DNA of 64,000 nucleotides from Armatimonadota bacterium (GTDB taxonomy: Bacteria > Armatimonadota > Fimbriimonadia > Fimbriimonadales > GBS-DC). Made by a program: the position numbers and the translations under genes. The notes under the pieces were generated by a model that was not told the origin of the DNA, ran no database searches, and saw only the letters and a program-made list of their open reading frames with translations. The stretch is taken from NCBI GenBank assembly GCA_037444405.1, contig JBBIML010000009.1, forward strand, positions 64,001 to 128,000. The letters run 5' to 3'. Position 1 is the first letter of the stretch; each line of letters begins with the position of its first letter. Of this stretch, positions 1,876 to 25,556 are shown in pieces.

Positions 1876-3317
1876 TTTTTATTGGGTTCTGCAGGCGGCG
1901 ATGGTGCTTCCACTGTAATCGGCACCTGTAGCCACTGATGGTCGATATAGACGCTGATTGTGCCCTGTCCGGGGCGAAGCGCGGTGAATCGTCCCCACTG
2001 GTCGATGAAGCCCAGCCCGCTGCTGCAGCCCCAGAGAGCGTCCCAGGTGGAGACAGGCTCGCGCCCGCGCCAGATTCGGAAGCGCACCTGCTCGCCCACT
2101 TTCAGCGTGGCGGCGGGCGGCTCGACGCGATAGGTTTCACGCGGCAGTGCAGGGCGCAGGCTGTCATCGAACAGCAGCAGCATATTCGCCACAGGGCGCT
2201 CGTTGCCGTCCGATGGGCTGTTCAGTATCAGATTGTACGCCACCAGTGTCGTGGAGCCGCCTCCATCGAGATTGATGGCTTCGATGGCGCCGTAGCGCAG
2301 CATCAGTTGCGCCAGTTCTGCCAGGCTGGCGCCCTGACTGTGCGCCTGGCGTCCGTCCACCACCAGCCAGATGAGTTCGCCCTTCGCCGTGCGTCCGACC
2401 GCCGTGCGCGGATGGCGCCGCTCGATGAATCCGCTGTTGAAGCCCGCGCGTACCAATTCTTCGGCGATCACAGGCTTGCCGTTGCGCACCAGCCACGGTC
2501 CGCCCGCAACGGCTTCCGACACCTCACGCCATTCAGGTGCGCCCTCTCCCCGCAGGTCGATGCGAATCTGCACCTTCTGACCCGCCTGCAGCGATTGCAG
2601 GAACTGGCTCGCTTCGCCCGTGCCCATCAGCACGCCGCCGGTGAAGGGGATCGGCACGCTGTTCACATCGGTCAGCACGGAGCGCACGACCGCCTGCACG
2701 GTGCTGCCCACCCGCAGCGGGCGCTGCAGCAAATCCAGCACTAATGCCGTGCCCGCCGCCTCTGATTGGGCACTCACACCGAAGAAGCTGGTGAACAGCA
2801 CCAGATCGCCGTTTGCCCTCACAGGGCGGTTGATGCCTGTGAGCGCGAAGCGCTGCCCGTCGGCGCGGGTTACTTCGGCGTCCAGTTCGGGCGCGCCCAT
2901 TACCACCCTGCCGCGCATGGTCCAGCCGACGGCGGGACGGTTCGGGAACGGTTCGCTCACGATTTCGCCTCCAATAATGCACAGTCCCAGCGGGTCGCCT
3001 GTGAAGGGGAAGAAGTCGGCGTTGATGGCGGCGAGCGCGCGATGGCGCCACGCCGCGCGACTGACCGCCTCCCGCCCGCGCGTCGGGTCGCCACTCAGCA
3101 CCACATCGTTGCCCAGCGCTGCCATCAGGCGCACGGAGCGTGATGGTGTGATGCGCAAGCCTGATACCACCAGCGGCGGCTCCGTGCTGACCTCCTGAAA
3201 CAGCACCACATGGGGTGCAATGCGCTTTTCTATCTTTTCAGGCGGCTTCGACTGCGCCAGCACGCCCACCATCAGCCACAGCCCCGCCAGCCCTGCGAGC
3301 CAGTATCGCCCTCTCAT
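1842..3317 (-). CDS. exported phosphodiester glycosidase family protein (NAGPA/DUF2233-like)
   Basis: Signal peptide; AAINADFF, RHPRTAVG, VVDGR, AINLDGGGST motifs. Confidence 0.85.
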   Translation of the reverse strand: MRGRYWLAGLAGLWLMVGVLAQSKPPEKIEKRIAPHVVLFQEVSTEPPLVVSGLRITPSRSVRLMAALGNDVVLSGDPTRGREAVSRAAWRHRALAAINADFFPFTGDPLGLCIIGGEIVSEPFPNRPAVGWTMRGRVVMGAPELDAEVTRADGQRFALTGINRPVRANGDLVLFTSFFGVSAQSEAAGTALVLDLLQRPLRVGSTVQAVVRSVLTDVNSVPIPFTGGVLMGTGEASQFLQSLQAGQKVQIRIDLRGEGAPEWREVSEAVAGGPWLVRNGKPVIAEELVRAGFNSGFIERRHPRTAVGRTAKGELIWLVVDGRQAHSQGASLAELAQLMLRYGAIEAINLDGGGSTTLVAYNLILNSPSDGNERPVANMLLLFDDSLRPALPRETYRVEPPAATLKVGEQVRFRIWRGREPVSTWDALWGCSSGLGFIDQWGRFTALRPGQGTISVYIDHQWLQVPITVEAPSPPAEPNKNGGAGGNRTHE

Positions 3318-3342
3318 CAGAGCGCAAGTATACCCATGCTTC

Positions 3343-3369
3343 GTAGCAGGGGCAGGATGCCCCTGCTAC
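3343..3369. repeat. GTAG-type REP-like palindrome
   Basis: GTAGCAGGGGCA-GGA-TGCCCCTGCTAC between two divergent -10 boxes. Confidence 0.6.
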
Positions 3370-13679: not shown

Positions 13680-13952
13680 ATGCGAACAATAGCGATACAG
13701 ATACCGGATGAGATCGCGGATGTGCTGGCGGCGGACGAATCGCAGCTTCAGCAGGAGCTGCAGATGGTTGTCGCGGTCAAGTTATACGAGCTGGGGCGTC
13801 TTAGCGCAGGGGCAGCTGCCGCTCTGGTGGGGTTAAGTCGACTGGAGTTTCTTAACCGCCTCTCTGCCTACCGTGTCTCACCCATCAATCTCGATGAAGA
13901 ATCTATTGAACGCGAGATTGCCACCGCCCATGAGATAGCTGATTGCAAATGA
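13680..13952 (+). CDS. UPF0175 family protein (putative antitoxin)
   Basis: AVKLYELGRLSAGAAAALVGLSRLEFL motif; overlaps the next start codon. Confidence 0.8.
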   Translation: MRTIAIQIPDEIADVLAADESQLQQELQMVVAVKLYELGRLSAGAAAALVGLSRLEFLNRLSAYRVSPINLDEESIEREIATAHEIADCK

Positions 13953-14437
13953 AACGGATTGTTGATGCATCGCCAGCGATTCTGTTAGCGAAAATAGACT
14001 CGCTGGAGCTGCTGCGTATCGGTGCGGAACAGGTGCTTATACCCACCACTGTCTGGTACGAGATTGAGCAAGGAGGTGACGAGACTTCTGCACTTATCTT
14101 GGTGGCAAAAAGCGAATGGCTAATCGAATGCACTTATGATGCCGTTCAGCTGCAGATTCCTTCATCGCTGGGTCCTGGTGAGCGAGCCGTTATTGAACAG
14201 GCACTCGCCTTAGGTGTCGAGCAGGTCGTGATGGATGACCTTGCTGCACGACGATTCGCAGAACAGGTTGGGCTGAAGCCAGTAGGCACTCTGGGCATTT
14301 TGTTGGCTGCCAAACTGGCAGGATTCATCCCATCGGTGTCTGAAAAAATAAAAGCGCTGGAATCGTCGGGCATGTACCTTTCTGAAGCAGTAATACAGCG
14401 GGTGCTGATGGAAGCAGGTGAGATAGCCGAGCCATAA
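13949..14437 (+). CDS. DUF3368 PIN-domain protein (putative toxin)
   Basis: IVDASP, LGPGERAVI, MDDLAARR, GTLGILL motifs; ATGA overlap with upstream gene. Confidence 0.85.
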   Translation: MKRIVDASPAILLAKIDSLELLRIGAEQVLIPTTVWYEIEQGGDETSALILVAKSEWLIECTYDAVQLQIPSSLGPGERAVIEQALALGVEQVVMDDLAARRFAEQVGLKPVGTLGILLAAKLAGFIPSVSEKIKALESSGMYLSEAVIQRVLMEAGEIAEP

Positions 14438-14470: not shown

Positions 14471-15982
14471 ATGTACTTGTTAGGTCTTGACATTGGCACG
14501 ACGGGTGTGAAGGCGGTGTTGATCGATGCGCGGGGGCGCGTGCTGACCAGCGGCGCCGATACCTACCCGCTGCACACGCCGCAACCGCTGTGGGCGGAGC
14601 AGAATCCGCTCGACTGGTGGCGAGCCACCGTCAGCGCGATTCAGCAGGTGCTATCCGAAAGTGGGATCGCGCCCAGCCAGATTCAGGGCATCGGGCTGAG
14701 CGGACAGATGCACGGCTCGGTCTTTCTGGATGAGCAGAACCGCGTCATTCGCCCGGCGCTGCTCTGGTGCGACCAGCGCACCGCCGAGGAGTGCGCCTGG
14801 ATCACCGAGCGTGTCGGGCAGGAGAAGGTGCTGGAAACAACGCTGAACCCCGTGTTGACAGGCTTTCAGGCGGGCAAGATTATCTGGCTGCGCCGCCACG
14901 AACCTGCCCACTACGCCCGCGTGCGCCATGTGCTGCTGCCCAAAGATTACATCCGCTTCATGCTCACGGGAGAATACGCGACCGATGTGTCGGATGCTTC
15001 AGGCACCGCGCTGTTTGAGGTGCCCAAACGCGACTGGGCATACGAGATGCTGGACATTCTGGAGCTGCCGCGCGAGTGGTTCCCGCGCGTCTACGAGTCG
15101 CCTGAGATTACAGGGCGGTTGCATGCGCAGGCGGCGGCAGCCACAGGTCTGGCGGAGGGCACGCCGGTGGTGGCGGGTGCGGGCGATCAGGCGGCGGGCG
15201 CGGTCGGCACCGGCATCGTGCAGCAGGGGCGAATCGCCGTGTCGGTCGGCACCAGCGGCGTGGTGTTTGCACACTTAGACCAGCCGCGCGTCGACCCGCT
15301 CTATCGCACGCACACCTTCTGCCATGCTGTGCCCGGCTGCTGGCATGTGATGGGCGTGATGCTGATGGCGGGTGGGGCGCTGCGCTGGTATCGCGACACC
15401 TTCGCGCAGGTGGATTTGTATGCCGCGCGCGCCGCTGGCGAAGACCCCTACGAGCGTCTGCTCAGTGAGGCGGAGCCGATCCCGCCCGGCTGTGAAGGGC
15501 TGCTCTTTGTGCCCTATCTGTCGGGCGAGCGCACGCCGTACCCTGACCCGAAGGCGCGGGGCGCGTTCATCGGCGCGACGCTCAAGCATCAACGGGCGCA
15601 TTTCACCCGCGCCGTGCTGGAAGGCGTCGCCTGCGGCTTGCGCGACTCGTTCGAAATCCTGCAGGCGATGGGCGTGCCCATCGAGGAGGTGCGCATGACG
15701 GGCGGCGGCGCACGCAGCCCGCTCTGGCGTCAGATTCTCGCCGATATAACGGGCTACCCCATTCACACCCTGCAAGCCGAGGAGGGACCCGCGTTCGGCG
15801 TCGCGCTGTTAGCGGGCGTGGGCACAGGACTCTGGAACAGCGTGCCTGAAGCGTGCGAGGCGACCATCCAGCTGGCGACGCGCACCACGCCGAACGCTCA
15901 GCACCGCGCCGCCTACGAGCGCACCTACGCGCTCTATCGGCAACTCTATCCCACCCTGAAACCCATCTTTGAGCAACTGTAG
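14471..15982 (+). CDS. xylB: xylulokinase
   Basis: LGLDIGTTGVK, SGQMHG, WCDQR, DASGT, GERTP, GGGARS FGGY-kinase motifs. Confidence 0.92.
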   Translation: MYLLGLDIGTTGVKAVLIDARGRVLTSGADTYPLHTPQPLWAEQNPLDWWRATVSAIQQVLSESGIAPSQIQGIGLSGQMHGSVFLDEQNRVIRPALLWCDQRTAEECAWITERVGQEKVLETTLNPVLTGFQAGKIIWLRRHEPAHYARVRHVLLPKDYIRFMLTGEYATDVSDASGTALFEVPKRDWAYEMLDILELPREWFPRVYESPEITGRLHAQAAAATGLAEGTPVVAGAGDQAAGAVGTGIVQQGRIAVSVGTSGVVFAHLDQPRVDPLYRTHTFCHAVPGCWHVMGVMLMAGGALRWYRDTFAQVDLYAARAAGEDPYERLLSEAEPIPPGCEGLLFVPYLSGERTPYPDPKARGAFIGATLKHQRAHFTRAVLEGVACGLRDSFEILQAMGVPIEEVRMTGGGARSPLWRQILADITGYPIHTLQAEEGPAFGVALLAGVGTGLWNSVPEACEATIQLATRTTPNAQHRAAYERTYALYRQLYPTLKPIFEQL

Positions 15983-15983
15983 G

Positions 15984-17102
15984 CTACACAATCTCCCGAA
16001 TCTGTTCGGGCGGCTCGGCGTTCAGCGATTCGCAGCCCGTCTCGGTAATCACATACACATTCTCGACGCGCACGCCGAACCTGCCAGGCAGGTAGATGCC
16101 CGGCTCGATGGTGAAGCAGTGTCCGACCTCCAGCGGCGCGTCGTTGCCCTCCACGATATAGGGCGGCTCATGGACCGACAGCCCGATGCCGTGCCCTGTG
16201 CGATGCACGAAGTAGTCGCCGTAGCCCGCCTGCTGGATCACGCGCCGCGCGGCTCTATCGACTTCCTGTGCGGGCACGCCCGCCCTGGCGGTCGCCCGCG
16301 CCGCCATGTGCGCCTCATACACGACGGCGTAAATCTTTTTCGCCTCTTCGGGCACGGCGCCCACGCTGATGACGCGCGTGATGTCGTTGCAGTAGCCCTC
16401 GTAGGTGCCGCCGTAGTCGATCACGATCACATCGCCTTCCTGCAGGGGGCGATGCCCTGTGGTGTAGTGCGGTCGGGAGCTGTTCTCACCCGCTGCCACG
16501 ATGGGGATGCCGAACGCCAGATGGGAGCCGAAGTCGTACAGCGCCCGCTGGATTGCCAGCGCGACCGCCCACTCGCTGACACCGGGCATGCAGCGTTCCA
16601 GCCCTGCGGCGAGCGCCTCATCGGTCAGTCGCGCCGCCTCGCGCATGCGCTCAACTTCGGCTGCGTCTTTGCGGGCGCGTACGGTGGCGATGATTTCGCC
16701 GCCTCGCCGAAACAGCGCGGCGGGCAGCACCTCCTGCAAAATCAGCAAAAACATGGCGGGCATCTCGTCGTCGACGGCAATCACGGCGGTCTCCAGATTC
16801 TGCTCGCGGGCGCACCGCTCCAGCTGCTGGAAGGGACCTTCCGAGTCGTGCCACACATAGCGCACCTGCCAGCGTGCAGGGTTCGCCTCCGCGCTTTCGG
16901 CGCTGAGCGCGGGCATGAACCAGCACGGCTCGCCCGATTGCGGCACCAGCAGGAACATCAGTCGCTCCAGCGGCGGCTCGCTGAACCCGCTCAGATAGAG
17001 CATATTCACAGGGGTCGCCGCCAGATAGGCGTCCACACCGTGTTGAATCAACGCCGCCTGCAACTTCGCCACCCGCTGCGCATAGAGCGCCTGCTCCGCC
17101 AT
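15984..17102 (-). CDS. Xaa-Pro dipeptidase/aminopeptidase (M24B)
   Basis: HRTGHGIGLSVHEPP, TIEPGIY, GVRVEN metal-binding motifs. Confidence 0.92.
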   Translation of the reverse strand: MAEQALYAQRVAKLQAALIQHGVDAYLAATPVNMLYLSGFSEPPLERLMFLLVPQSGEPCWFMPALSAESAEANPARWQVRYVWHDSEGPFQQLERCAREQNLETAVIAVDDEMPAMFLLILQEVLPAALFRRGGEIIATVRARKDAAEVERMREAARLTDEALAAGLERCMPGVSEWAVALAIQRALYDFGSHLAFGIPIVAAGENSSRPHYTTGHRPLQEGDVIVIDYGGTYEGYCNDITRVISVGAVPEEAKKIYAVVYEAHMAARATARAGVPAQEVDRAARRVIQQAGYGDYFVHRTGHGIGLSVHEPPYIVEGNDAPLEVGHCFTIEPGIYLPGRFGVRVENVYVITETGCESLNAEPPEQIREIV

Positions 17103-17104
17103 CG

Positions 17105-17776
17105 TCAGCCACCTCCAATACTGATGCGCAACCAATCATGCAATAAGTAATAGATGCGTCCAATCAGCAGCGCGGTACGCGCCATCACCGTGTTGCCAAA
17201 CATCGCGCCCAATCCAATCATCAGGAACCAGCGCCCGAAGGTCGCCACGCGCCTGACCACACCCCGATGCTCAAAGGAGAAGGTGAAATAGGTCAACACC
17301 GACAGTAAGAAGACAATAAATATCCAGTTGTTCAGCACATCGGAGATAACCACATCATTATTAGAAGTTTGCCAGAGCGGTTTTGCCAGAGCGCTATTGA
17401 GCTGGGGTAGCTGACGCGAGGCAAACTCCTGGAAGAAGAGACCTGCTGATGCACCAATGAGCACGCCAATCACGATGCGGCTCAGCCAGCCGTAGCGCTC
17501 GCTGTAGATGAAATAGAGATAAAGACCGAACGGCACAACGAAGCTCCATGCCCAGAACCCCTGCGTCAGCGGTTCCACCCAGTAGCGATAGAGGATGTCC
17601 ACCAGCAGGGGTCCCAGCGAATAGCCTGCCGCCAGCCCGATGTACATGTGTTCAAAGAAGCGGTAGAAGGGGTTCTCCCGATAGAGAATGGAGTAGATGG
17701 CAAAGGTGCAGATGACCCCTATCCAGATATTGAGCCGTTCCCAACTCAGCGGCAGAAACTCCTGGAGCCAGTCCAT
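17105..17776 (-). CDS. uncharacterised polytopic membrane protein
   Basis: About 6 hydrophobic segments; YSILYRENPFYRFFEH and GAMFGNTVMAR motifs. Confidence 0.8.
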   Translation of the reverse strand: MDWLQEFLPLSWERLNIWIGVICTFAIYSILYRENPFYRFFEHMYIGLAAGYSLGPLLVDILYRYWVEPLTQGFWAWSFVVPFGLYLYFIYSERYGWLSRIVIGVLIGASAGLFFQEFASRQLPQLNSALAKPLWQTSNNDVVISDVLNNWIFIVFLLSVLTYFTFSFEHRGVVRRVATFGRWFLMIGLGAMFGNTVMARTALLIGRIYYLLHDWLRISIGGG

Positions 17777-17779
17777 GCT

Positions 17780-18613
17780 TTATCCCTCCCGTGCGTGTCG
17801 ACTCAGAAACATCGCGATATTCCCGAGCAGAATGGTCAGAATGATCAGCACATGGGAAAACTGAATGCAGTTAGCGAATATCGCTCCCTGTCCCTTGATT
17901 TTCAGCAGCTGCTCGTACTCCTGTGCGCCTTTGGCGCCTGTCAACATGCCCTCGACCTGCCCCGAATCGAGAAAGGTGTAAGCTTCGGCTGCCATCACGG
18001 AGGTGGGGCAGAAGAGGACAATCAACCCCTTGGGGCGATAGGAGACCCAGAGAGGCATCGTGCCCGAGGGCGTTACATCGATCACCATTTTGTAGTCCGC
18101 CAATGTGCGCACGCCCTTAAGAACCTCCAGTTGACTGACCGGTGTACCCTCCACATCCTGTTTGACCGTTGCGGGCAGGTCGGTTGTCATGCCTTTGATT
18201 GCCACGATCAGGTTGACATAAAAGCCGAGGTGAGCCCAGTCCTTGCCATACTCGTACCCATACTCTTTGGCGATACGCTGGGCGATACGGTACGACAGAT
18301 CGCGTGCCTGTGCTTCCACCGACATAATCGTGAATCGCACCTTCTTGCGCATCAGATGGTGTAAAACCGCCTCCAGCTGGGGCTTATTCTCGGCAATCGT
18401 GCTGGCGCTCCAGTTGGATGAAACCATCACTAAGTCGCCTGTCTGAAGTTTTTCGATAGCGTTATAGAACTTGCGTGCTGGCGGGCTGATGACCGCCTTC
18501 AACTGAACGGGCAGCAGCAGAAATACCACAATGTTGACAAACAGCAGCAGATAGAGAATCCGCCGATCGATTGCCAGCATCCGGTCCCACACAGCAGGTT
18601 GTCTGGTCTGCAT
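17780..18613 (-). CDS. uncharacterised membrane protein (TM - soluble alpha/beta domain - TM)
   Basis: GAGGAGG RBS; N- and C-terminal TM segments around a soluble domain (YGKDWAHLGF, GMLTGAKGAQEYE). Confidence 0.8.
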   Translation of the reverse strand: MQTRQPAVWDRMLAIDRRILYLLLFVNIVVFLLLPVQLKAVISPPARKFYNAIEKLQTGDLVMVSSNWSASTIAENKPQLEAVLHHLMRKKVRFTIMSVEAQARDLSYRIAQRIAKEYGYEYGKDWAHLGFYVNLIVAIKGMTTDLPATVKQDVEGTPVSQLEVLKGVRTLADYKMVIDVTPSGTMPLWVSYRPKGLIVLFCPTSVMAAEAYTFLDSGQVEGMLTGAKGAQEYEQLLKIKGQGAIFANCIQFSHVLIILTILLGNIAMFLSRHAREG

Positions 18614-18626
18614 CGTTGCTTCCTCC

Positions 18627-19484
18627 TCAGGTGATGCCGCGTTCAAGGCTCAGCCATAGTCGGATCGCCATCGCCAGTCCGCCGATGCCCACGCCAAACT
18701 CGATCGCTCGCTGGACAGGGGCGTTGAGCTTGATCAGAATCCAGTTCGCAATTTCTGGCAGGCTCAGGGCATAGAGGATAGACTCCAGCGAGAACGGATG
18801 CGCGTCTTTGGGCACCTCCGAGGGCAAGCCCATCCAGCTGCTGATTGCGGCGCCCAGCGGCATAATACCAATCATAATAATCATCGCGGTGAACATCAGA
18901 ATGCCGGCTTCGATGGAACGAACCCGGAAGGCGCGATAGGCTGCCGAATAGATATAGAAGGCAATGATGGAGAACATCGCCGCGTCCAGCTGAACCAGGG
19001 TGTAGTCGAACAGGATCTCGAAGCCGCGCACCAGCACGGAATTTTTGGGCAGGAGGTTCTTTGCTGCCAGCGTGTTCCAGATGCTGAAGAACGCCATCGT
19101 GAGGAAGGAGATCAGCAAGACGACGCTGTAGCCCCACTGGGCACGCCGTTGCACCACATTGCGCAGATGCAGGCGTATCAGCCCGTAAGTGCCCAGTCCT
19201 AACGCCAGACTGCCAATAATCTGCAGCACATTTTGGGCGGGCTGAACACCGGGCGTAAGCCAGTTCTCATTGTCTTTGGTCAGCGGCAGGAAGAACTCAG
19301 CCGCAAAAAAGGCGCCTGCGAAGAAGGTAATCAAGGCAATCAGCACACGCCGCCCACGCGGAGGCAACGCCTGCAACAGCGGGATCAGCCCCAGCATCAG
19401 CAAGAACGCCCCTAATACAATCAGCACCATCGCGATGATGCCCGCCGTCGTCGAAGTGTCCACCTGCCAGACCGATCTCCACAT
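18627..19484 (-). CDS. uncharacterised polytopic membrane protein
   Basis: About 7 hydrophobic segments; AMFSIIAFYIYSAAYRAFRVRS motif. Confidence 0.8.
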   Translation of the reverse strand: MWRSVWQVDTSTTAGIIAMVLIVLGAFLLMLGLIPLLQALPPRGRRVLIALITFFAGAFFAAEFFLPLTKDNENWLTPGVQPAQNVLQIIGSLALGLGTYGLIRLHLRNVVQRRAQWGYSVVLLISFLTMAFFSIWNTLAAKNLLPKNSVLVRGFEILFDYTLVQLDAAMFSIIAFYIYSAAYRAFRVRSIEAGILMFTAMIIMIGIMPLGAAISSWMGLPSEVPKDAHPFSLESILYALSLPEIANWILIKLNAPVQRAIEFGVGIGGLAMAIRLWLSLERGIT

Positions 19485-19487
19485 CGG

Positions 19488-20324
19488 TTATTTCCCTCCG
19501 AAAAGAGTTTTGGAAACAAATTCGACGAAAGGCTCCCAGCCGCCTGGTTGACCCAGCAGCTTGATAAACGGGTGATCCGTGCCCAGCACGGTGGCGGCAA
19601 TCGCTCCCACGCCCACGGTACAGGCAAAGAGGAACTTGGCGATGTCCTGCCCCACCATGCTGCCCAGCAGCACCGGTTCACGGCTGAGATATGCGCTCGT
19701 CGCGTAGAACTCGTCGCCGATAATCGTGTAGTCGCATGCCGCCACAAAGAAGGGCACCTGCGTGAAGCTGACGGTGCCCGCGATCTGAATCGCGCCCACG
19801 ATGTTGCCTGTCTCGGCGAAGATCAGCGACTCGGCATAGAACTCGCCGAACATGAAGTTGGCAGCTACCCGTTCACGCTGGATCAGCCCTGCCACACCCG
19901 ATGCGAAGGCAAACTGGCGGTCGGACAGGAAGCGCACGCTGTCGGGGTCATACAGGTCGGGGCGACCTGCCTCGTTATAAGCGTCCTGAATCGCTTCCTG
20001 TGCCACCGCATACACGGTTGCATCGGCGGTCAGCAGGCGCATCGGCGTCGCGAACTTGGCAATTTGTTTCGTGATATATTTGAAGATAGTCAACGCCTGC
20101 ACGGCCGCCACGCCGAAAGCGGTTAAGCCCGGGATCATCGTGACGGGGCGCCCCATCTCGGTGGAGCGACCGATAGCCTCGTCGATGGCGTCCAGCCCCG
20201 CAATGCGCCGAATGTAGAGCTGGGCGCCTGCCTTCGCCCGCGCGATGTTAATCAGCACTGCCAGCGCGATAATCGCAATGATAATCGCCGCGAACCAGTT
20301 ATCCTGCGCATGTTGATAGGGCAT
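19488..20324 (-). CDS. DUF6754-like membrane protein
   Basis: IRRIAGLDAIDEAIGRSTEMGRP, QFAFASG, AESLIFAE, IIGDEFYATSAYL; family assignment recalled, not searched. Confidence 0.75.
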   Translation of the reverse strand: MPYQHAQDNWFAAIIIAIIALAVLINIARAKAGAQLYIRRIAGLDAIDEAIGRSTEMGRPVTMIPGLTAFGVAAVQALTIFKYITKQIAKFATPMRLLTADATVYAVAQEAIQDAYNEAGRPDLYDPDSVRFLSDRQFAFASGVAGLIQRERVAANFMFGEFYAESLIFAETGNIVGAIQIAGTVSFTQVPFFVAACDYTIIGDEFYATSAYLSREPVLLGSMVGQDIAKFLFACTVGVGAIAATVLGTDHPFIKLLGQPGGWEPFVEFVSKTLFGGK

Positions 20325-20669
20325 TCAGCTGGACCCTCCCGTCTCCGATGAGTGGCTGGCGGCAGGCATCTGGCGTCCTGCGCGTCGCTCCTCCTCCAGC
20401 TCCTCGATGCGTTCGATGAGCCGATCCCAGTTCTCGCGCTCGCTCATCAGCTGAGTGTATTCGTCCACACGCTGGAAGCCGAACAGGGCGACCAGAAACG
20501 GCGAGAAGGCGATGCCCGCCTGCGAGCCGATGAACGCCAGCGGGCGATGCAGCTCCAGAAATATTATTGCTGGCGCCGCCAGCCCGCGATTGACCACGAA
20601 CCGCGCCATCGCCTCGATCAGCTCCTGCTTACGCTCCTCGCTCAGTGGCTCTTTCCAGAACTCGTGCAT
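20325..20669 (-). CDS. hypothetical protein
   Basis: Abuts the next gene; PAIIFLELHRPLAFIGSQ motif. Confidence 0.75.
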   Translation of the reverse strand: MHEFWKEPLSEERKQELIEAMARFVVNRGLAAPAIIFLELHRPLAFIGSQAGIAFSPFLVALFGFQRVDEYTQLMSERENWDRLIERIEELEEERRAGRQMPAASHSSETGGSS

Positions 20670-20681
20670 GCGCCACCACCT

Positions 20682-21149
20682 TCAGATTTTAACCGTCTGT
20701 TTCGCCTGCTTACGCCGCTTACGAACCGCTTTTTTGCTCTGGTGGGTGGCGGTGCAGAAGCGTTCCACCAGCGCCCGCACTTCATCGGCATGATCGCCGT
20801 ACCAGAGAAAGATACCCCGAAAGGCGTCCAGTCGGCTCGGCTTCTCGAAGGGGCTAAGCAGCACGCCCTGCTCGCCCCACACCACACGCCGAACGCGCTC
20901 CCAGCGCATCAGGCGCGGCGACCACCCTTTCTGACGGATGCCCGCCTCGTCCGCTTCATAGCGGATCGGCAGCAGGTAGTCGGCAGTCGCTGAGAAGACC
21001 ATCCACAGGGCAGCGATCGCGAACAGCCAGTGCCCCATCAGCCATAGCCCCAGCAGTGGTGCGCCAATCAGCACCAGCAGCACCACGGGCAGCCGCTCCG
21101 GCTGACGCCGCGCCAGATGCACCCGCCACCGCAATAATGGTTCCGCCAT
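20682..21149 (-). CDS. hypothetical 2-TM membrane protein with PH-like beta C-terminus
   Basis: Two TM segments, then a YEADEAGI..W..V beta region. Confidence 0.7.
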   Translation of the reverse strand: MAEPLLRWRVHLARRQPERLPVVLLVLIGAPLLGLWLMGHWLFAIAALWMVFSATADYLLPIRYEADEAGIRQKGWSPRLMRWERVRRVVWGEQGVLLSPFEKPSRLDAFRGIFLWYGDHADEVRALVERFCTATHQSKKAVRKRRKQAKQTVKI

Positions 21150-21160
21150 AGCGCCATTTA

Positions 21161-22447
21161 TCAATTCGTTGTTGCTGCCGCCTCTCCTGCCGGCTTCTCC
21201 CGAAACAGCAATCCGAACACCACGCCAATCACCACTGTCGCCACCGTCGGCACCAGGAACACCAGCGTGTAGTTCGTCACGCCGTTAACGGTGAAGATGT
21301 CCTTGAGCCAGCCTGCCAGAAAGCCGCCTGCCAGCGCGCCCACGCCCAGCACTGCCACATTGATCAGCGCCTGCGCCGACGAGCGAATATCGGCAGGCGC
21401 CACCATGTCGGTATAGATGAACGCTACCACGAAGAAGAACACATAGCAGAAGCCGTGCAGCGCCAGCGAAGCCACCGCCAGCCACACCGTCCACGGCGCC
21501 GTTTCGTGCAGCGCCCACGCCAGCGCGAACACGGCGTAACGGGCTGGCCACGCAAAGATGCCCAGCAACAGCGTGCGCCGAATACCCCATATCGGCAACA
21601 CCGCAGGCAACATCAGCGCAATCGTGAAAATCTCGGCAATCTGCGCTATCGTCATCCAGGCTGGCAGGTTATCGGCGGTGATACCCACTCGCCCGCCCGC
21701 CGATTGCAGGAAGGGAAAGGTCAGAATGTAATACAGTGGCAGCTCCGTCGCCACCAGAAACGCCACGATGAAAAACAGGCGATAGTTCGGGTCGCGCAGC
21801 AACTGCAGCGCTTCGATAAACGCGAACGGGTTCGGCGCCTCCGTAGCGGGCGGTGTGTTCGGCAGGGCGAAGCTGATCAGTCCCGCAATCAGCGAGATTA
21901 CGCCCGCCATCAGAAACACATCGATAATCCCCCATTGCAGCGAACCTGCGGTGCGCATTACCGAAACCAGCCAGTTCGCCACAATCCAGCCAATCGTGCC
22001 CCAGACGCGAATCGGTCCGAACTCTATCGCAGGATCTTTCAGGTTGCGGAAAGCGACCGAGTTAGAGAGAGCAAGTGTCGGCGCATAGCAGAAGGCGTAT
22101 GCCAGCATCAGCACCGTCATCGGCAACAGCGTCTTCTGATAGGCAAGCAGTATCAGCAGTGCGCCACCCAGCAGGTGAAACAGCGCCAGCGCACGCTGGG
22201 CAGGCATCAGGCGATCCGCCAGCTGCCCCGCTGTGAACGGCACAATCAGGTTCATAATCGGCAGCGCGTTATAGATCAGCGCCAGCCCCAGCCCCGTGAA
22301 GCCCAGCTCCTTCTCCAGATAGCCCGCCAGCGCAACCGACCATGCGCCCCAGATGGCGTACTGCAGGAACATCATCACCGCCAGCATCGGTTGCTCCTGC
22401 AGCACACGGATCGCTATCGCCAGAGTGCTTTCCTGCCTTCCCTGCAT
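21161..22447 (-). CDS. MFS nucleoside:H+ symporter family permease (NupG/XapB-like)
   Basis: MMFLQYAIWGAW, FGPIRVWGTIGWI, QIAEI, LHGFCYVFF motifs. Confidence 0.88.
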   Translation of the reverse strand: MQGRQESTLAIAIRVLQEQPMLAVMMFLQYAIWGAWSVALAGYLEKELGFTGLGLALIYNALPIMNLIVPFTAGQLADRLMPAQRALALFHLLGGALLILLAYQKTLLPMTVLMLAYAFCYAPTLALSNSVAFRNLKDPAIEFGPIRVWGTIGWIVANWLVSVMRTAGSLQWGIIDVFLMAGVISLIAGLISFALPNTPPATEAPNPFAFIEALQLLRDPNYRLFFIVAFLVATELPLYYILTFPFLQSAGGRVGITADNLPAWMTIAQIAEIFTIALMLPAVLPIWGIRRTLLLGIFAWPARYAVFALAWALHETAPWTVWLAVASLALHGFCYVFFFVVAFIYTDMVAPADIRSSAQALINVAVLGVGALAGGFLAGWLKDIFTVNGVTNYTLVFLVPTVATVVIGVVFGLLFREKPAGEAAATTN

Positions 22448-22468
22448 CGTTTGTTTGCCTCCTTGCGC

Positions 22469-23476
22469 TCAATTGAGGGGCTGATTCGCCGTCAGCGTCG
22501 TCTTCTCCTGCCGATTTTCTTCTGGCGAGCGCACAAAAAGAATATAGCTGAGCAGAACGGCGAGCGCAATCGTGCCCCAGAGGAACTTTGTCCAGCTCGG
22601 AAAGGCGTAGAAGGAGAAGAAGGCTTCGGTGAAGGCGGCGATGAAGATCAGCGGGATGGAGCCGCCCAGCAGCCAGATGGCTTCGCGTCCCGCCTCGCGC
22701 AGGGCGTCGATGCGGGTCAAATCGCCCGGCATCAGCAGGGCGCGCCCCAGCAGCAGCCCGCCTGCGCCGCACAGAAAGATGGCGCCTATCTCTGGTACAC
22801 CATGCGGATAGATGGAGACCAGAAAGAAGCCCAGCTTGCCCGCCCGCGCCATCTCCGCCGCGAAGATGCCCAGCAGAAAGCCGTTCGTCCACAGCAGATA
22901 GACCGTCGGAATGCCTAAAAAGAAGCCCAATCCGAACGAGAGCATCGCCACGCGCGTGTTGTTCACAAAATAGAAGCTGGACATCACCGCCGCCAGCCCT
23001 GTCTGACCCAGCTGATATTGTCGTCCGCTCTTCCAGTGTTCCAGCACTTCGGCGAACTGCGGGTCTAACAGGCGGGCGGTCCAAGCGGGATCGCGGCTCA
23101 CCAGCGCGAAGGCGATCAGCGCGCCGGCGAGCGTGAGGGCGATGCTCAACGCCACCGCCCGCCACTGCCGCCGCACCACTGCCGGGAAGGTGTAGAACAG
23201 GCGTTTGATACCCTCGCGCAGGCTGGCTCTTGGGGGGCGATAGAACACGCCGTGCGCCTGACCCAGCAGGCTGTTGAGATAGTCGATCACGGGCGGATCG
23301 GCTCCCTGCAGGCGGGCGTAGGCTAAATCGGTTGCCACCTGCCGATAGAGGCGTCCCAGCTCGTTCAGTTCCTGACGGGTGAGCGCGTGGGCGCCGCCCC
23401 AGCGCACCGCCCGCACCATCTGCTCAAACCGCTCCCAGCGTGCCTTCCGCCGCTCCACAAACGCCCGAACATTCAC
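22469..23476 (-). CDS. SpoIIM/DUF95 family membrane protein
   Basis: LYRQVATDLAYAR, NNTRVA, PHGVPEI motifs. Confidence 0.85.
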   Translation of the reverse strand: MNVRAFVERRKARWERFEQMVRAVRWGGAHALTRQELNELGRLYRQVATDLAYARLQGADPPVIDYLNSLLGQAHGVFYRPPRASLREGIKRLFYTFPAVVRRQWRAVALSIALTLAGALIAFALVSRDPAWTARLLDPQFAEVLEHWKSGRQYQLGQTGLAAVMSSFYFVNNTRVAMLSFGLGFFLGIPTVYLLWTNGFLLGIFAAEMARAGKLGFFLVSIYPHGVPEIGAIFLCGAGGLLLGRALLMPGDLTRIDALREAGREAIWLLGGSIPLIFIAAFTEAFFSFYAFPSWTKFLWGTIALAVLLSYILFVRSPEENRQEKTTLTANQPLN

Positions 23477-23488
23477 GCCCCGTTCGAT

Positions 23489-23854
23489 TCACCGCGCCTC
23501 GCACCCATCCTGCATGCTTTCGGTCGTCTGCTGCTCGCTATCCCACTGGCGGGCGAACTCGCGGATGGTTTTGAGCAGCTCGATCAGTCGCTCCCCGCGC
23601 GGGGTGAAGGCGTACTCCACATGGGGAGGCACTTCGGGATACACTTGCCGCCGAATCAGCCCGAACCGCTCCAGCTTGCGCACGCGCTCCTGCAGCACCT
23701 TTGGGGTCAAGCCGGGCAGCGCACGCTCCAGCTTGCCCGGACGGTTAATCCCCTGTGCAATCGCGTCCAGAATCGCCAGCGTCCACTTGCACTTGAGGAT
23801 GTCCGTCAGGCACTCGTAGACTTCCGCATAGGGATGCTGCCACACTTCGCCCAT
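23489..23854 (-). CDS. HxlR family winged-helix transcriptional regulator
   Basis: KWTLAIL, KVLQERVRKLE, EVPPHVEY motifs. Confidence 0.88.
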   Translation of the reverse strand: MGEVWQHPYAEVYECLTDILKCKWTLAILDAIAQGINRPGKLERALPGLTPKVLQERVRKLERFGLIRRQVYPEVPPHVEYAFTPRGERLIELLKTIREFARQWDSEQQTTESMQDGCEAR

Positions 23855-23867
23855 AACCGCATGAAGT

Positions 23868-25556
23868 TTACTCGACCGACGATGCTGACATGCCGAGCAG
23901 TTCGCGGGCGTGCTGGAGAGCGGTTTCGGTCGGTTCGCCTGTGAGCATGCGGGCGATTTCGCGCACGCGCTCTTCATCGCGAAGTGCGCTGACAATCACG
24001 CGCGTGGTATCGCCCTCCACCTGCTTCTCAATCAGCAGGTGGTGCTGGGCGCGGCTGGCGATCTGGGGCAGGTGCGTGACGCAGATAATCTGGAAGTGCT
24101 GGCTCAGGCGAGCCAGCTTCTCGCCCACGAAGTGCGCTGTTCGCCCGCCCAGTCCGGCGTCGATCTCGTCGAACACCAGCGTTGGCACCGGCGAGGCGGT
24201 TGTTAGTACCGTTTTGAGCGCGAGCATCACGCGCGACAGCTCGCCGCCCGAGGCGATTTTGTGCAGGGGTCGCGGCGGCTCGCCCGGATTCGCGCTGAAC
24301 AGGAACTCCACCGCGTCGGTGCCCGTGCTGTCCATCGGCTTCGGCGTGAGGTTCACCACAAACTGCGCGCGCTCCATCGCCAGCTCGGTCAGAATCGAGC
24401 GCACCTGCTCGGCGAAGCGGGTTGCGCCGTTGCGCCGCGCATCACTGAGCTGCTCACAGAGAGCATTTGCGCGGGCGCGCGTCGCCTCCAGCTCCTGCTC
24501 CAGCTCCTCGCGCCGCTCGGTCTGATGCTCCAGCGCGTGCAGTTTCTGCTCCGCCTCGTTCGCATAGGCTAAGATCGCGTCGATCGTGTCGCCATACTTG
24601 CGCTTCAGGCGTCGAATCTGTTCCAGTCGGGCAATCACCGTCTCCAGCCGTTCGGGGTCGTACTCGATGCTTTCGCTATACTGGCGCAGCAGTGCCGCGC
24701 ACTCCTGAAGTTGAACCGCCGCGCTCTCCAGCGTTTCCTGCCAGTCCGCGACGGAGGGGTCAATACGGGCAATTTCGTGCAGGTGGCGAGCGGCTTCGGC
24801 AGCCCGATCATACGCGCCGCCCTCGCTCATCAGGCACTCATACGCGGAGCTTGCCAGCGCGAGCAGCTTTTCCGCGTGAGTCAGCCGTCGCTCCTCCGTG
24901 AGCAGGCTTTCCTCCTCACCCGCTTGCAGGTGCGCGCTGCGTATCTCCTGAATCTGGAAGCGGTAGAGGTCGATCATCTGCTCGCGTTCGCGCTCGCGTT
25001 CAATTAGCGCCTGCAGTTCGTTCTCGATCTGGTGCAGGCGGCACACGGTCTCGCGTACTTCGGCGCGCAGGTTCAGCACCCGTTCGCCCAGCCAGCGATC
25101 CAGAAAGTCGAGATGACTGCTCGGTTTCAGCAGGGACTGATGTTCGTGCTGTCCGTGCAGATCGACCAGCAGGTCGCCGATGGCTTTGAGCGTGTTGAGC
25201 GGCACGGGCTGAGCGTTCACACGCGCGATGGAGCGCCCGCCTGCCTGCACCTCGCGCGAGAGATAGAGCAGTTGCTGACCGTTCTCGTGCGTTTCAGGTT
25301 CGATGCCCAGCTCCTGCAGGGTTGCCTGCAGGTCGGGGTCGTTGGGTAGTTGTATGATGGCGTTCACGCGCAGGCGGTCGGCGCCCGTGCGAATGAGCGA
25401 CGGGTCCGCTCGCTCACCCAGCACAAGGTTCAGCGCGCCCAGCAGGATCGACTTGCCCGCGCCCGTCTCCCCCGTCAGCACATTGAAACCCGGCGCGAAG
25501 CCGATGTCCACTCGCTCAATAATCGCCAGATTCTCGATGTGCAACTCCAGCAGCAT
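23868..25556 (-). CDS. recN: DNA repair protein RecN
   Basis: LTGETGAGKS, ASGGELSRVMLA, FDEID, VTHLPQIA. Confidence 0.97.
   Translation of the reverse strand: MLLELHIENLAIIERVDIGFAPGFNVLTGETGAGKSILLGALNLVLGERADPSLIRTGADRLRVNAIIQLPNDPDLQATLQELGIEPETHENGQQLLYLSREVQAGGRSIARVNAQPVPLNTLKAIGDLLVDLHGQHEHQSLLKPSSHLDFLDRWLGERVLNLRAEVRETVCRLHQIENELQALIEREREREQMIDLYRFQIQEIRSAHLQAGEEESLLTEERRLTHAEKLLALASSAYECLMSEGGAYDRAAEAARHLHEIARIDPSVADWQETLESAAVQLQECAALLRQYSESIEYDPERLETVIARLEQIRRLKRKYGDTIDAILAYANEAEQKLHALEHQTERREELEQELEATRARANALCEQLSDARRNGATRFAEQVRSILTELAMERAQFVVNLTPKPMDSTGTDAVEFLFSANPGEPPRPLHKIASGGELSRVMLALKTVLTTASPVPTLVFDEIDAGLGGRTAHFVGEKLARLSQHFQIICVTHLPQIASRAQHHLLIEKQVEGDTTRVIVSALRDEERVREIARMLTGEPTETALQHARELLGMSASSVE

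Follow-up and report, generated by a model that had tools for sequence, protein, structure and literature searches.

A widespread membrane gene cassette of the DUF6754 family in an Armatimonadota bacterium, and its likely GlmL-type and barrel-sandwich partners

Introduction

Proteins of the family DUF6754 (Pfam PF20539) have been catalogued and are uncharacterised. In the searchable literature, which does not include subscription journals, no mention of DUF6754, PF20539 or PF13941 was found, nor any account of an actin-fold ATPase membrane complex of the kind considered here in Armatimonadota. This report concerns a six-gene operon, with genes designated A to F in the order of transcription, of which C encodes a DUF6754 protein. 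It lies on the minus strand, at positions 17105–21149 of a 64,000 nt stretch of DNA from an Armatimonadota bacterium of the order Fimbriimonadales (assembly GCA_037444405.1, contig JBBIML010000009.1, positions 64,001–128,000), which is called the window throughout. Two further proteins, G and H, are encoded outside the operon in the same genome and are likely partners of its products. The system is undescribed, widespread and strongly conserved.

Several described systems resemble parts of this one. Protein G belongs with PF13941, the GlmL/MutL accessory family of glutamate mutase, which has the actin/Hsp70/sugar-kinase fold and is not the mismatch-repair MutL. Relatives of GlmL are described, in an excerpt of PMC4682846, as chaperones that reactivate an enzyme. 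The likeness of G to GlmL/MutL consists of a full-length PF13941 match and the signature of the ASKHA (acetate and sugar kinases/Hsc70/actin) fold, but G accompanies membrane proteins and not a B12 enzyme. The N-terminal domain of protein H is a barrel-sandwich hybrid resembling RnfC_N and NqrA_N of the Rnf and Na+-NQR complexes, at scores below the curated cut-offs; however, there are no iron-sulfur or flavin motifs, and no subunits of the RnfD/E/A/G or NqrB-F types are found among A–F, so the locus does not belong to either group.

The RCK/KTN domains of Trk, Ktr and MthK are, like C and E, Rossmann-like domains tied to membrane helices, and they are found among the fold matches of both proteins (Z 9.4–9.7 for C and 8.2–8.7 for E). 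These Z values tie with those of short-chain dehydrogenases/reductases (SDRs), sirtuins, GT-B halves and MT0777, and there is no sequence match. RCK/KTN systems also have a channel-forming partner, and no such partner family was found with the window proteins. Energy-coupling factor (ECF) transporters offer an analogy only: the single-copy A, B, G and H appear to be shared among alternative C-D-E-F units, which elsewhere occur in tandem. Unlike ECF transporters, the window system shows no match to an ATP-binding cassette (ABC) ATPase, EcfT or an S-component family and has no Walker A motif, its putative motor is of the actin fold, and its exchangeable unit consists of four subunits with an extracytoplasmic domain.

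The C-D-E-F cassette is conserved across phyla

The operon runs from A (20682–21149, within an open reading frame (ORF) that extends to 21164 and has an ATG at 21149) through B (20325–20669), C (19488–20324), D (18627–19484) and E (17780–18613, within an ORF that extends to 18646) to F (17105–17776), all on the minus strand. A GGAGG-like ribosome-binding site precedes the ATG of genes B–F, as well as those of the two flanking genes, a permease gene of the major facilitator superfamily (MFS) upstream and a gene for an M24 peptidase downstream; the ATG of A lacks one. The start of E is the ATG at 18613 behind GAGGAGG, and because of these sites the ATG starts of E and of the peptidase gene were preferred over longer ORFs beginning with TTG. 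With ATG starts, the gaps along the series MFS, A, B, C, D, E, F and M24 are 11, 12, 0, 3, 13, 3 and 2 nt, and the tight, co-oriented operon of six genes (gaps of 0–13 nt from A to F) proposed in the initial annotation is therefore confirmed.

C is a member of PF20539, with a score of 309.3 bits against a cut-off of 27 and a match covering model positions 10–248 of 257. None of the other five proteins matches a Pfam or NCBIfam family at an E-value of 0.1 or below, save for a chance-level match of D to DUF4131. At the same threshold none of A–F matches ABC_tran or an ABC permease family, and neither D nor F matches a known family of secondary carriers (MFS, DctQ/DctM and others). A motif scan found no Walker A motif and no CxxC motif in A–F, which have 0–2 cysteines per protein. 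The initial annotation's statement that motifs of Walker A, ABC, tripartite ATP-independent periplasmic (TRAP) and redox-cofactor types are absent thus holds for the motif scan and the Pfam/NCBIfam searches. Sequence and profile searches of the PDB with C, E, D, F, H and G gave nothing significant (best E-values 1.3, 0.011 to a designed repeat protein, 0.074 and 0.18), the PADLOC defence models matched none of the eight proteins A–F, G and H at an E-value of 0.01 or below, and the matches of D and F in the ESM Atlas were to clusters without names only, with no structure model there for either protein.

Relatives of C were located by scanning one genome of each GTDB species with a sequence pattern. 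The 81 loci surveyed (numbered with the prefix L) are the best 80 of at least 628 confirmed relatives, together with a second copy in the source genome. Gene content was scored on called ORFs with phmmer and with a single-round profile search, and the two gave identical counts. C is present in 81/81 loci, D in 78/81, E in 77/81, F in 74/81, B in 52/81 and A in 46/81. All four of C, D, E and F are found in 74 of the 81, nearly always in the order C-D-E-F, and the window shares this order. Thirty-eight loci have the order ABCDEF, 19 have CDEF and four have BCDEF; A and B are placed differently in three (L061, L074 and L080), and three carry double cassettes in tandem or convergent arrangement (L041, L047 and L051). 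Two loci seem to read CDFE, but only because their ORFs were over-extended, and four incomplete loci stop at a contig edge. The window genes are almost certainly one instance of this conserved cassette, and the suggestion that they form a multi-subunit membrane gene set co-occurring across phyla proved correct.

By record titles, carriers include Armatimonadota, WOR-3, Fermentibacteria, Eisenbacteria, Coatesbacteria, Cloacimonadales, Latescibacterota, Poribacteria, Ignavibacteria, Symbiobacterium/Clostridia and Vulcanimicrobiota, among others; record titles and atlas taxa add Bacillota, Chloroflexota and Bathyarchaeota. This amounts to more than a dozen phyla, mostly uncultured; metagenome-assembled genomes labelled Chthonomonas, Fimbriimonas and Symbiobacterium are among the carriers. 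Close relatives of C are labelled Fimbriimonadales or Armatimonadota by their sources, and the protein clusters (90% identity) that match C number more than 6,300. One protein, 85% identical to the window C, is labelled 'Thermofilaceae archaeon'; its longest contig is 4.5 kb and is probably a mis-binned bacterial contig.

C is the best-conserved subunit, with 28 invariant columns in an alignment of 35 sequences. Many of the invariant positions are acidic or polar and lie in the domain assigned below to the cytoplasm. Identity to cassette-linked relatives beyond its own close group is 44–57%.

G and H are likely partners of the cassette

Clustering of all neighbouring ORFs of the surveyed loci revealed two further families, G and H. 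Both lie within or beside the operon in nine loci (L046, L051, L054, L061, L067, L070, L071, L074 and L080), usually in the order A-B-G-H-C-D-E-F. In these linked loci G is about 600–630 aa long and matches the Pfam family 'MutL' (PF13941) at an E-value of 1e-125. Four of the nine are from Fermentibacteria/Aegiribacteria. In one of these (L071), glycine-cleavage P-protein genes precede the A-B-G-H-C-D-E-F series and a gene for a TonB-dependent receptor follows it, and the flanking ORFs of the others (L054, L067 and L070) are similar in size and position.

The source genome encodes both proteins. G (591 aa; E-value 1.6e-131) is at positions 152139–153554 of contig C9, beyond the limits of the window and separated from the operon by about 67 kb. 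Its match to PF13941 is full-length, at 437.8 bits; a match to Hydantoinase_A was also found (E-value 1e-06). It scores below the NCBIfam cut-offs (238.9 against 475 for NF040745 and 188.5 against 204 for TIGR01319) and is therefore not an equivalog of either. Inspection of its sequence shows that the phosphate-1, phosphate-2 and adenosine motifs of the ASKHA nucleotide site are retained, and there is a C-terminal extension of about 110 aa. The glutamate mutase E subunit (GlmE, PF06368) was not found in the source genome, which is 98.9% complete, indicating that G does not serve glutamate mutase there.

H is encoded on contig C12 (25061–26185; E-value 4e-108) and is 47% identical to an H protein from Fermentibacteria. 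Members of this family are about 375–380 aa long, and nine of them are 40–51% identical to the H of the source genome. The only family signals are below threshold and come from barrel-sandwich hybrid domains, including Biotin_lipoyl. RnfC_N reached 24.4 bits (cut-off 25.6), NQRA_N 20.1 (cut-off 25) and TIGR01945 15.7 (cut-off 246), and the only PDB chain touched was RnfC, at an E-value of 0.18. A cofactor lysine of the biotin/lipoyl type at the hairpin of H was considered and rejected, as the lysine is not conserved among H proteins. In the source genome H directly follows a TatC-like ORF and precedes an OmpR-type response regulator, both recognised by eye (L085:690-1481 and 2606-3352).

The distribution of G closely follows that of C. 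In a sample of 201 evenly drawn Armatimonadota genomes, C was found in 175/201 and G in 175/201, and the tallies by family are alike, with 0/18 in family f6, 0/1 in f12 and 8/10 in f9, where the same two genomes lack each. Presence or absence agrees in about 197 of the 201 genomes, a figure for which six negatives each for C and G were taken from gaps in the numbering; G alone occurs in two genomes (G002 and G083) and C alone in two (G193 and G200). As relatives are not independent, this match is to be read as a pattern and not as a statistic. H was found in 5/5 closed C-positive genomes and in 0/5 C-negative genomes, and both C and G were present in 5/5 further genomes that had been picked through loci carrying C (Coatesbacteria, Cloacimonadales, one Armatimonadetes isolate and two others). 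In at least 13 of the sampled Armatimonadota genomes G lies 2–3.5 kb from C. In one Armatimonadota genome (G153, C1:475542-478421) H directly follows G, and the H match holds one in-frame TAA. In another genome, that of locus L051, the G match is split between C1:382270-383094 on the plus strand (model positions 171–450) and C1:388964-389671 on the minus strand (model positions 1–206); the two parts are about 6 kb apart on opposite strands, beside two convergent C-D-E-F cassettes, and may represent an inversion or a broken gene.

Copy number is unequal. Across Armatimonadota, G is nearly always single-copy and C is often double. In the source genome, tblastn detected two copies each of C, D, E and F, against a single copy of A, B, G and H. 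The second C-D-E-F cassette lies at C8:199451-202672 (L003:5446-8676, minus strand), has the same gene order without A or B, and is 31–41% identical; the window C is 40% identical to its counterpart there. This second cassette is trailed by a 252-aa ORF with no Pfam family and then by a NuoE-like 2Fe-2S protein.

Taken together, G and H are probably functional partners of the cassette. The initial annotation had pictured an ATP-independent machine, and this is not supported, since an ASKHA ATPase and its partner H are tied to the cassette by adjacency and by phyletic pattern.

Architecture and topology of the subunits

The AlphaFold2 model of C (predicted local distance difference test (pLDDT) score 89.3, predicted template modelling (pTM) score 0.78) consists of a transmembrane (TM) helix at residues 10–31, an alpha/beta domain with seven strands at 43–214 and a second TM segment at 217–247. 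That of E (pLDDT 95.4, pTM 0.89) has the same layout, with TM segments at 17–33 and 242–276 enclosing an alpha/beta domain at 44–237. D has about seven hydrophobic segments by family-averaged hydropathy (alignment of 58 sequences), the first of which is absent outside Armatimonadota, and carries the conserved motif AFYIxSAAYRAFRxRSxEA. F has about 5–6 such segments (alignment of 51 sequences) and the conserved motifs ENPFYRxxEH and FGxTVMxRxxLLIGR. The alternation of two polytopic proteins with two proteins of TM-soluble domain-TM layout, as first noticed, agrees with these models and hydropathy profiles.

The accessory proteins are small. A has a single strong hydrophobic stretch followed by a C-terminal domain of about 115 aa; weak matches to bPH_6 occur in 3/37 members of its family (best E-value 0.0016), none of them the window copy, and the domain may possibly be a bacterial pleckstrin homology (PH) domain. 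B is marked by a hydrophobic hairpin in the middle of the chain and by a C-terminal helix of acidic character, and a search of Pfam and NCBIfam with its family returned nothing.

Charge distribution suggests opposite orientations for C and E. Averaged over its family, C has 0.3 lysine plus arginine residues ahead of TM1 and 6.4 behind it, so that the N-terminus is probably outside and the Rossmann-like domain cytoplasmic. In E the corresponding numbers are 4.4 before TM1 and 3.1 after TM2, which would place both termini inside and the Rossmann-like domain probably on the extracytoplasmic side. Longer relatives of C carry modules that are expected to be exported: an fn3 domain precedes DUF6754 in one surveyed locus (L058), and fn3 and PQQ-like beta-propeller domains are found at the N-terminus in other phyla, among the 120 longer forms listed of 424. 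Their position ahead of TM1 agrees with an outside N-terminus of C. No cytoplasmic or enzymatic fusions to C occur among the same 120 forms, and no two of C, D, E and F were found naturally fused, long ORFs being due to over-extended starts. The placement of the two soluble domains on opposite sides of the membrane, offered at first as a mere suggestion, is thus probable from the charge counts and the exported modules.

In the models of C and E, helices and strands follow in nearly identical order and register over the first 150 residues or so. Both proteins match 1kjn_B (MT0777), with Z 10.4 for C (134 residues aligned, root-mean-square deviation (rmsd) 3.4) and Z 10.2 for E (137 residues aligned, rmsd 3.1), and both match SDRs, sirtuins, RCK/KTN domains, GT-B halves and eIF2B. 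Searches with Foldseek and VIA-align returned generic Rossmann-like folds only, at Z up to 10.9, none of which clearly stands out. Going by the models, the fold and the membrane layout of C are also those of E.

At the sequence level the picture is different. BLASTP of C against E gave an E-value of 2.1, and hhalign a probability of 1.2%, with a sole alignment that falls exactly on the stretch cited in the initial annotation as evidence that the two soluble domains track each other. That resemblance therefore stands for the fold and not for the sequence. The fold that the two have in common is the most frequent of all alpha/beta folds, so that C and E may or may not descend from one ancestor. 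For D and F (BLASTP E-value 0.8, hhalign probability 0.3%) sequence comparison lends common descent no support. An ancient duplication giving rise to a pseudo-symmetric 2+2 complex, as had been envisaged, is not supported by either comparison.

Complex prediction was carried out with D (residues 40–285), E, F and C (residues 1–252), all supplied with their alignments, C being the scored partner. The score was 0.72 (0.71, 0.72 and 0.74 in separate runs). Controls in which the partner was replaced scored 0.00 and 0.00, and the control in which E was replaced scored 0.67, short of the separation required, so that the prediction weighs neither for nor against binding.

Local neighbours of the operon

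The operon is part of an unbroken string of minus-strand ORFs. Upstream of A are a gene for an NupG-type MFS permease (21161–22447, minus strand; PF03825, E-value 2e-98) and a SpoIIM-like gene (22469–23476, minus strand; ORF list and Pfam SpoIIM), with which the string begins; it ends with a gene for an M24 Xaa-Pro-type peptidase (15984–17102, minus strand; PF00557 at an E-value of 4e-66, and PF01321, Creatinase_N), which starts 2 nt past F and has its own ribosome-binding site. A scan of 15500–24200 for promoters gave four sites against 2.2 ± 1.4 in shuffled sequences, and a scan for terminators gave nine against 5.8 ± 2.6; neither is an excess and all sites are intragenic. A look-up of transcript data listed no RNA set, its four entries being DNA contig sets of a single subsurface-metagenome study.

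Neither the flanking peptidase gene nor the permease gene is a regular companion of the cassette. M24 is found in 3/81 loci, where it follows F (L004, L005 and L007); these are close relatives in which C is 85–88% identical. The MFS gene adjoins the cassette in 1/81 (L004) and SpoIIM in 0/81. The M24 peptidase is a local passenger and the MFS permease a local neighbour, both lineage-specific and outside the conserved system, and the coupling to a Xaa-Pro peptidase proposed originally is not supported. Other neighbours recur in 10–11 loci each, and only in Armatimonadota: RecO downstream, and phosphoribosyl pyrophosphate (PRPP) synthetase and a GlmU-like gene upstream.

Elsewhere in the window, at 13680–14437 on the plus strand, two overlapping small ORFs of 90 and 164 aa resemble, by eye, an antitoxin/PIN-type toxin pair.

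Discussion

Our tentative proposal is an ATP-coupled, modular transport machine, widespread and uncharacterised, with about eight components, of which the six genes supply those embedded in the membrane. A role in transport or translocation across the membrane is likewise possible, at about the same level of assurance or slightly below it. More doubtful is the specific form which such a machine might take, a novel primary-active transmembrane machine with a GlmL-type actin-fold motor, a barrel-sandwich partner and interchangeable C-D-E-F units, in which the motor would differ in kind from ABC, P-type, rotary and AAA+ ATPases.

In such a machine C, D, E and F would form the core membrane unit, with A and B as small accessory membrane proteins. 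G and H would be cytoplasmic partners, docking on the strongly conserved domain that C places in the cytoplasm. Closure of the domains of G, driven by ATP, would then be relayed via C, D and F to the outward-facing domain of E, and this relay would carry a substrate through the cytoplasmic membrane. Several alternative C-D-E-F units, of which there are two in the source genome, may rely on one A/B/G/H set.

Several observations weigh against this proposal. Searches of Pfam, NCBIfam and the PDB, together with the fold search for C and E, linked none of the subunits to a transporter family or fold. No conserved neighbour in the 81 loci hints at a substrate. Three loci (L043, L055 and L083) carry C without D, E and F although the sequence runs on. 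We know of no actin-fold ATPase that powers a transporter, although no search was aimed at this point. Finally, as the relatives of GlmL are chaperones according to the excerpt of PMC4682846, G could act on a protein and not drive transport.

The likeliest alternative is one in which A–F, G and H build, export or tether a surface structure and G is an Hsp70- or actin-like chaperone or scaffold. We consider such an envelope assembly or anchoring machine unlikely, though it has several features in its favour. The fn3 and PQQ-like beta-propeller modules exported on C in other phyla are of types typical of contacts with surface proteins or glycans. The near-universal presence of C in Armatimonadota (175/201) and its strong conservation would fit a housekeeping role in the envelope, and the chaperone activity ascribed to GlmL relatives (PMC4682846, excerpt) would suit the part given to G. 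However, the conserved neighbours of the 81 loci include no gene for a glycosyltransferase, flippase, sortase or wall synthesis. Bacillota, Chloroflexota and Bathyarchaeota have differing envelopes, and carriers as diverse as these argue against one envelope-specific product; the presence of several cassettes per G/H set is also better suited to substrate-specific units.

Less likely again is a membrane-anchored, ATP-dependent enzyme or ion-coupled complex, in which a cytoplasmic reaction carried out by G and H would be coupled by C-D-E-F to the movement of ions. The analogy to Na+-pumping decarboxylases or Rnf/Nqr is a loose one, and draws on the Hydantoinase_A match of G, on the sub-threshold RnfC_N and NQRA_N signals of H with RnfC as its PDB match (E-value 0.18), and on the conservation of C, G and H, which resembles that of core enzymes. 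The cysteine content of A–F (no CxxC, 0–2 residues per protein) and the lack of RnfD/E/A/G or NqrB-F homologues in Pfam/NCBIfam scans of the window proteins point the other way, as does the unconserved hairpin lysine of H. An extracytoplasmic domain on E and exported fn3 and propeller modules on C would also be unexpected in an ion pump.

A sensory or regulatory complex is improbable. Here the outward domains would sense a cue and an RCK/KTN-like domain of C would bind a nucleotide and signal via G and H. RCK/KTN domains and TrkA/KtrC are indeed among the fold matches of C and E (Z 8.2–9.7), and the exported modules on C differ by lineage, but dozens of unrelated Rossmann-like proteins score equally well. 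No kinase, cyclase, helix-turn-helix or receiver domain appears as a conserved neighbour or, in the 120 longer forms listed, as a fusion to C, and two polytopic subunits with an ATPase exceed what a sensor needs.

The ATP-independent, pseudo-symmetric 2+2 carrier of peptides or amino acids feeding the Xaa-Pro peptidase, as first proposed, is very improbable, for although the peptidase gene lies 2 nt past F, with the same arrangement in three close relatives, and C and E share an architecture, the peptidase is adjacent in only 3/81 loci, G and H co-occur with the cassette and are often linked to it, and no homology is detectable between D and F (0.3%) or between C and E (1.2%).

The cassette is not a curiosity of a single genome, as relatives of C are found in more than 628 species genomes, and the identities of C (44–57%) and H (40–51%) across phyla are on a par with those of core enzymes. 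For annotation, the lesson is that a neighbouring peptidase and permease were uninformative on the function of the cassette. If an actin-fold ATPase does drive the transport machine proposed here, it would represent a new type of motor for membrane transport or envelope biology, and thousands of genomes would gain a function for six to eight of their 'hypothetical' genes.

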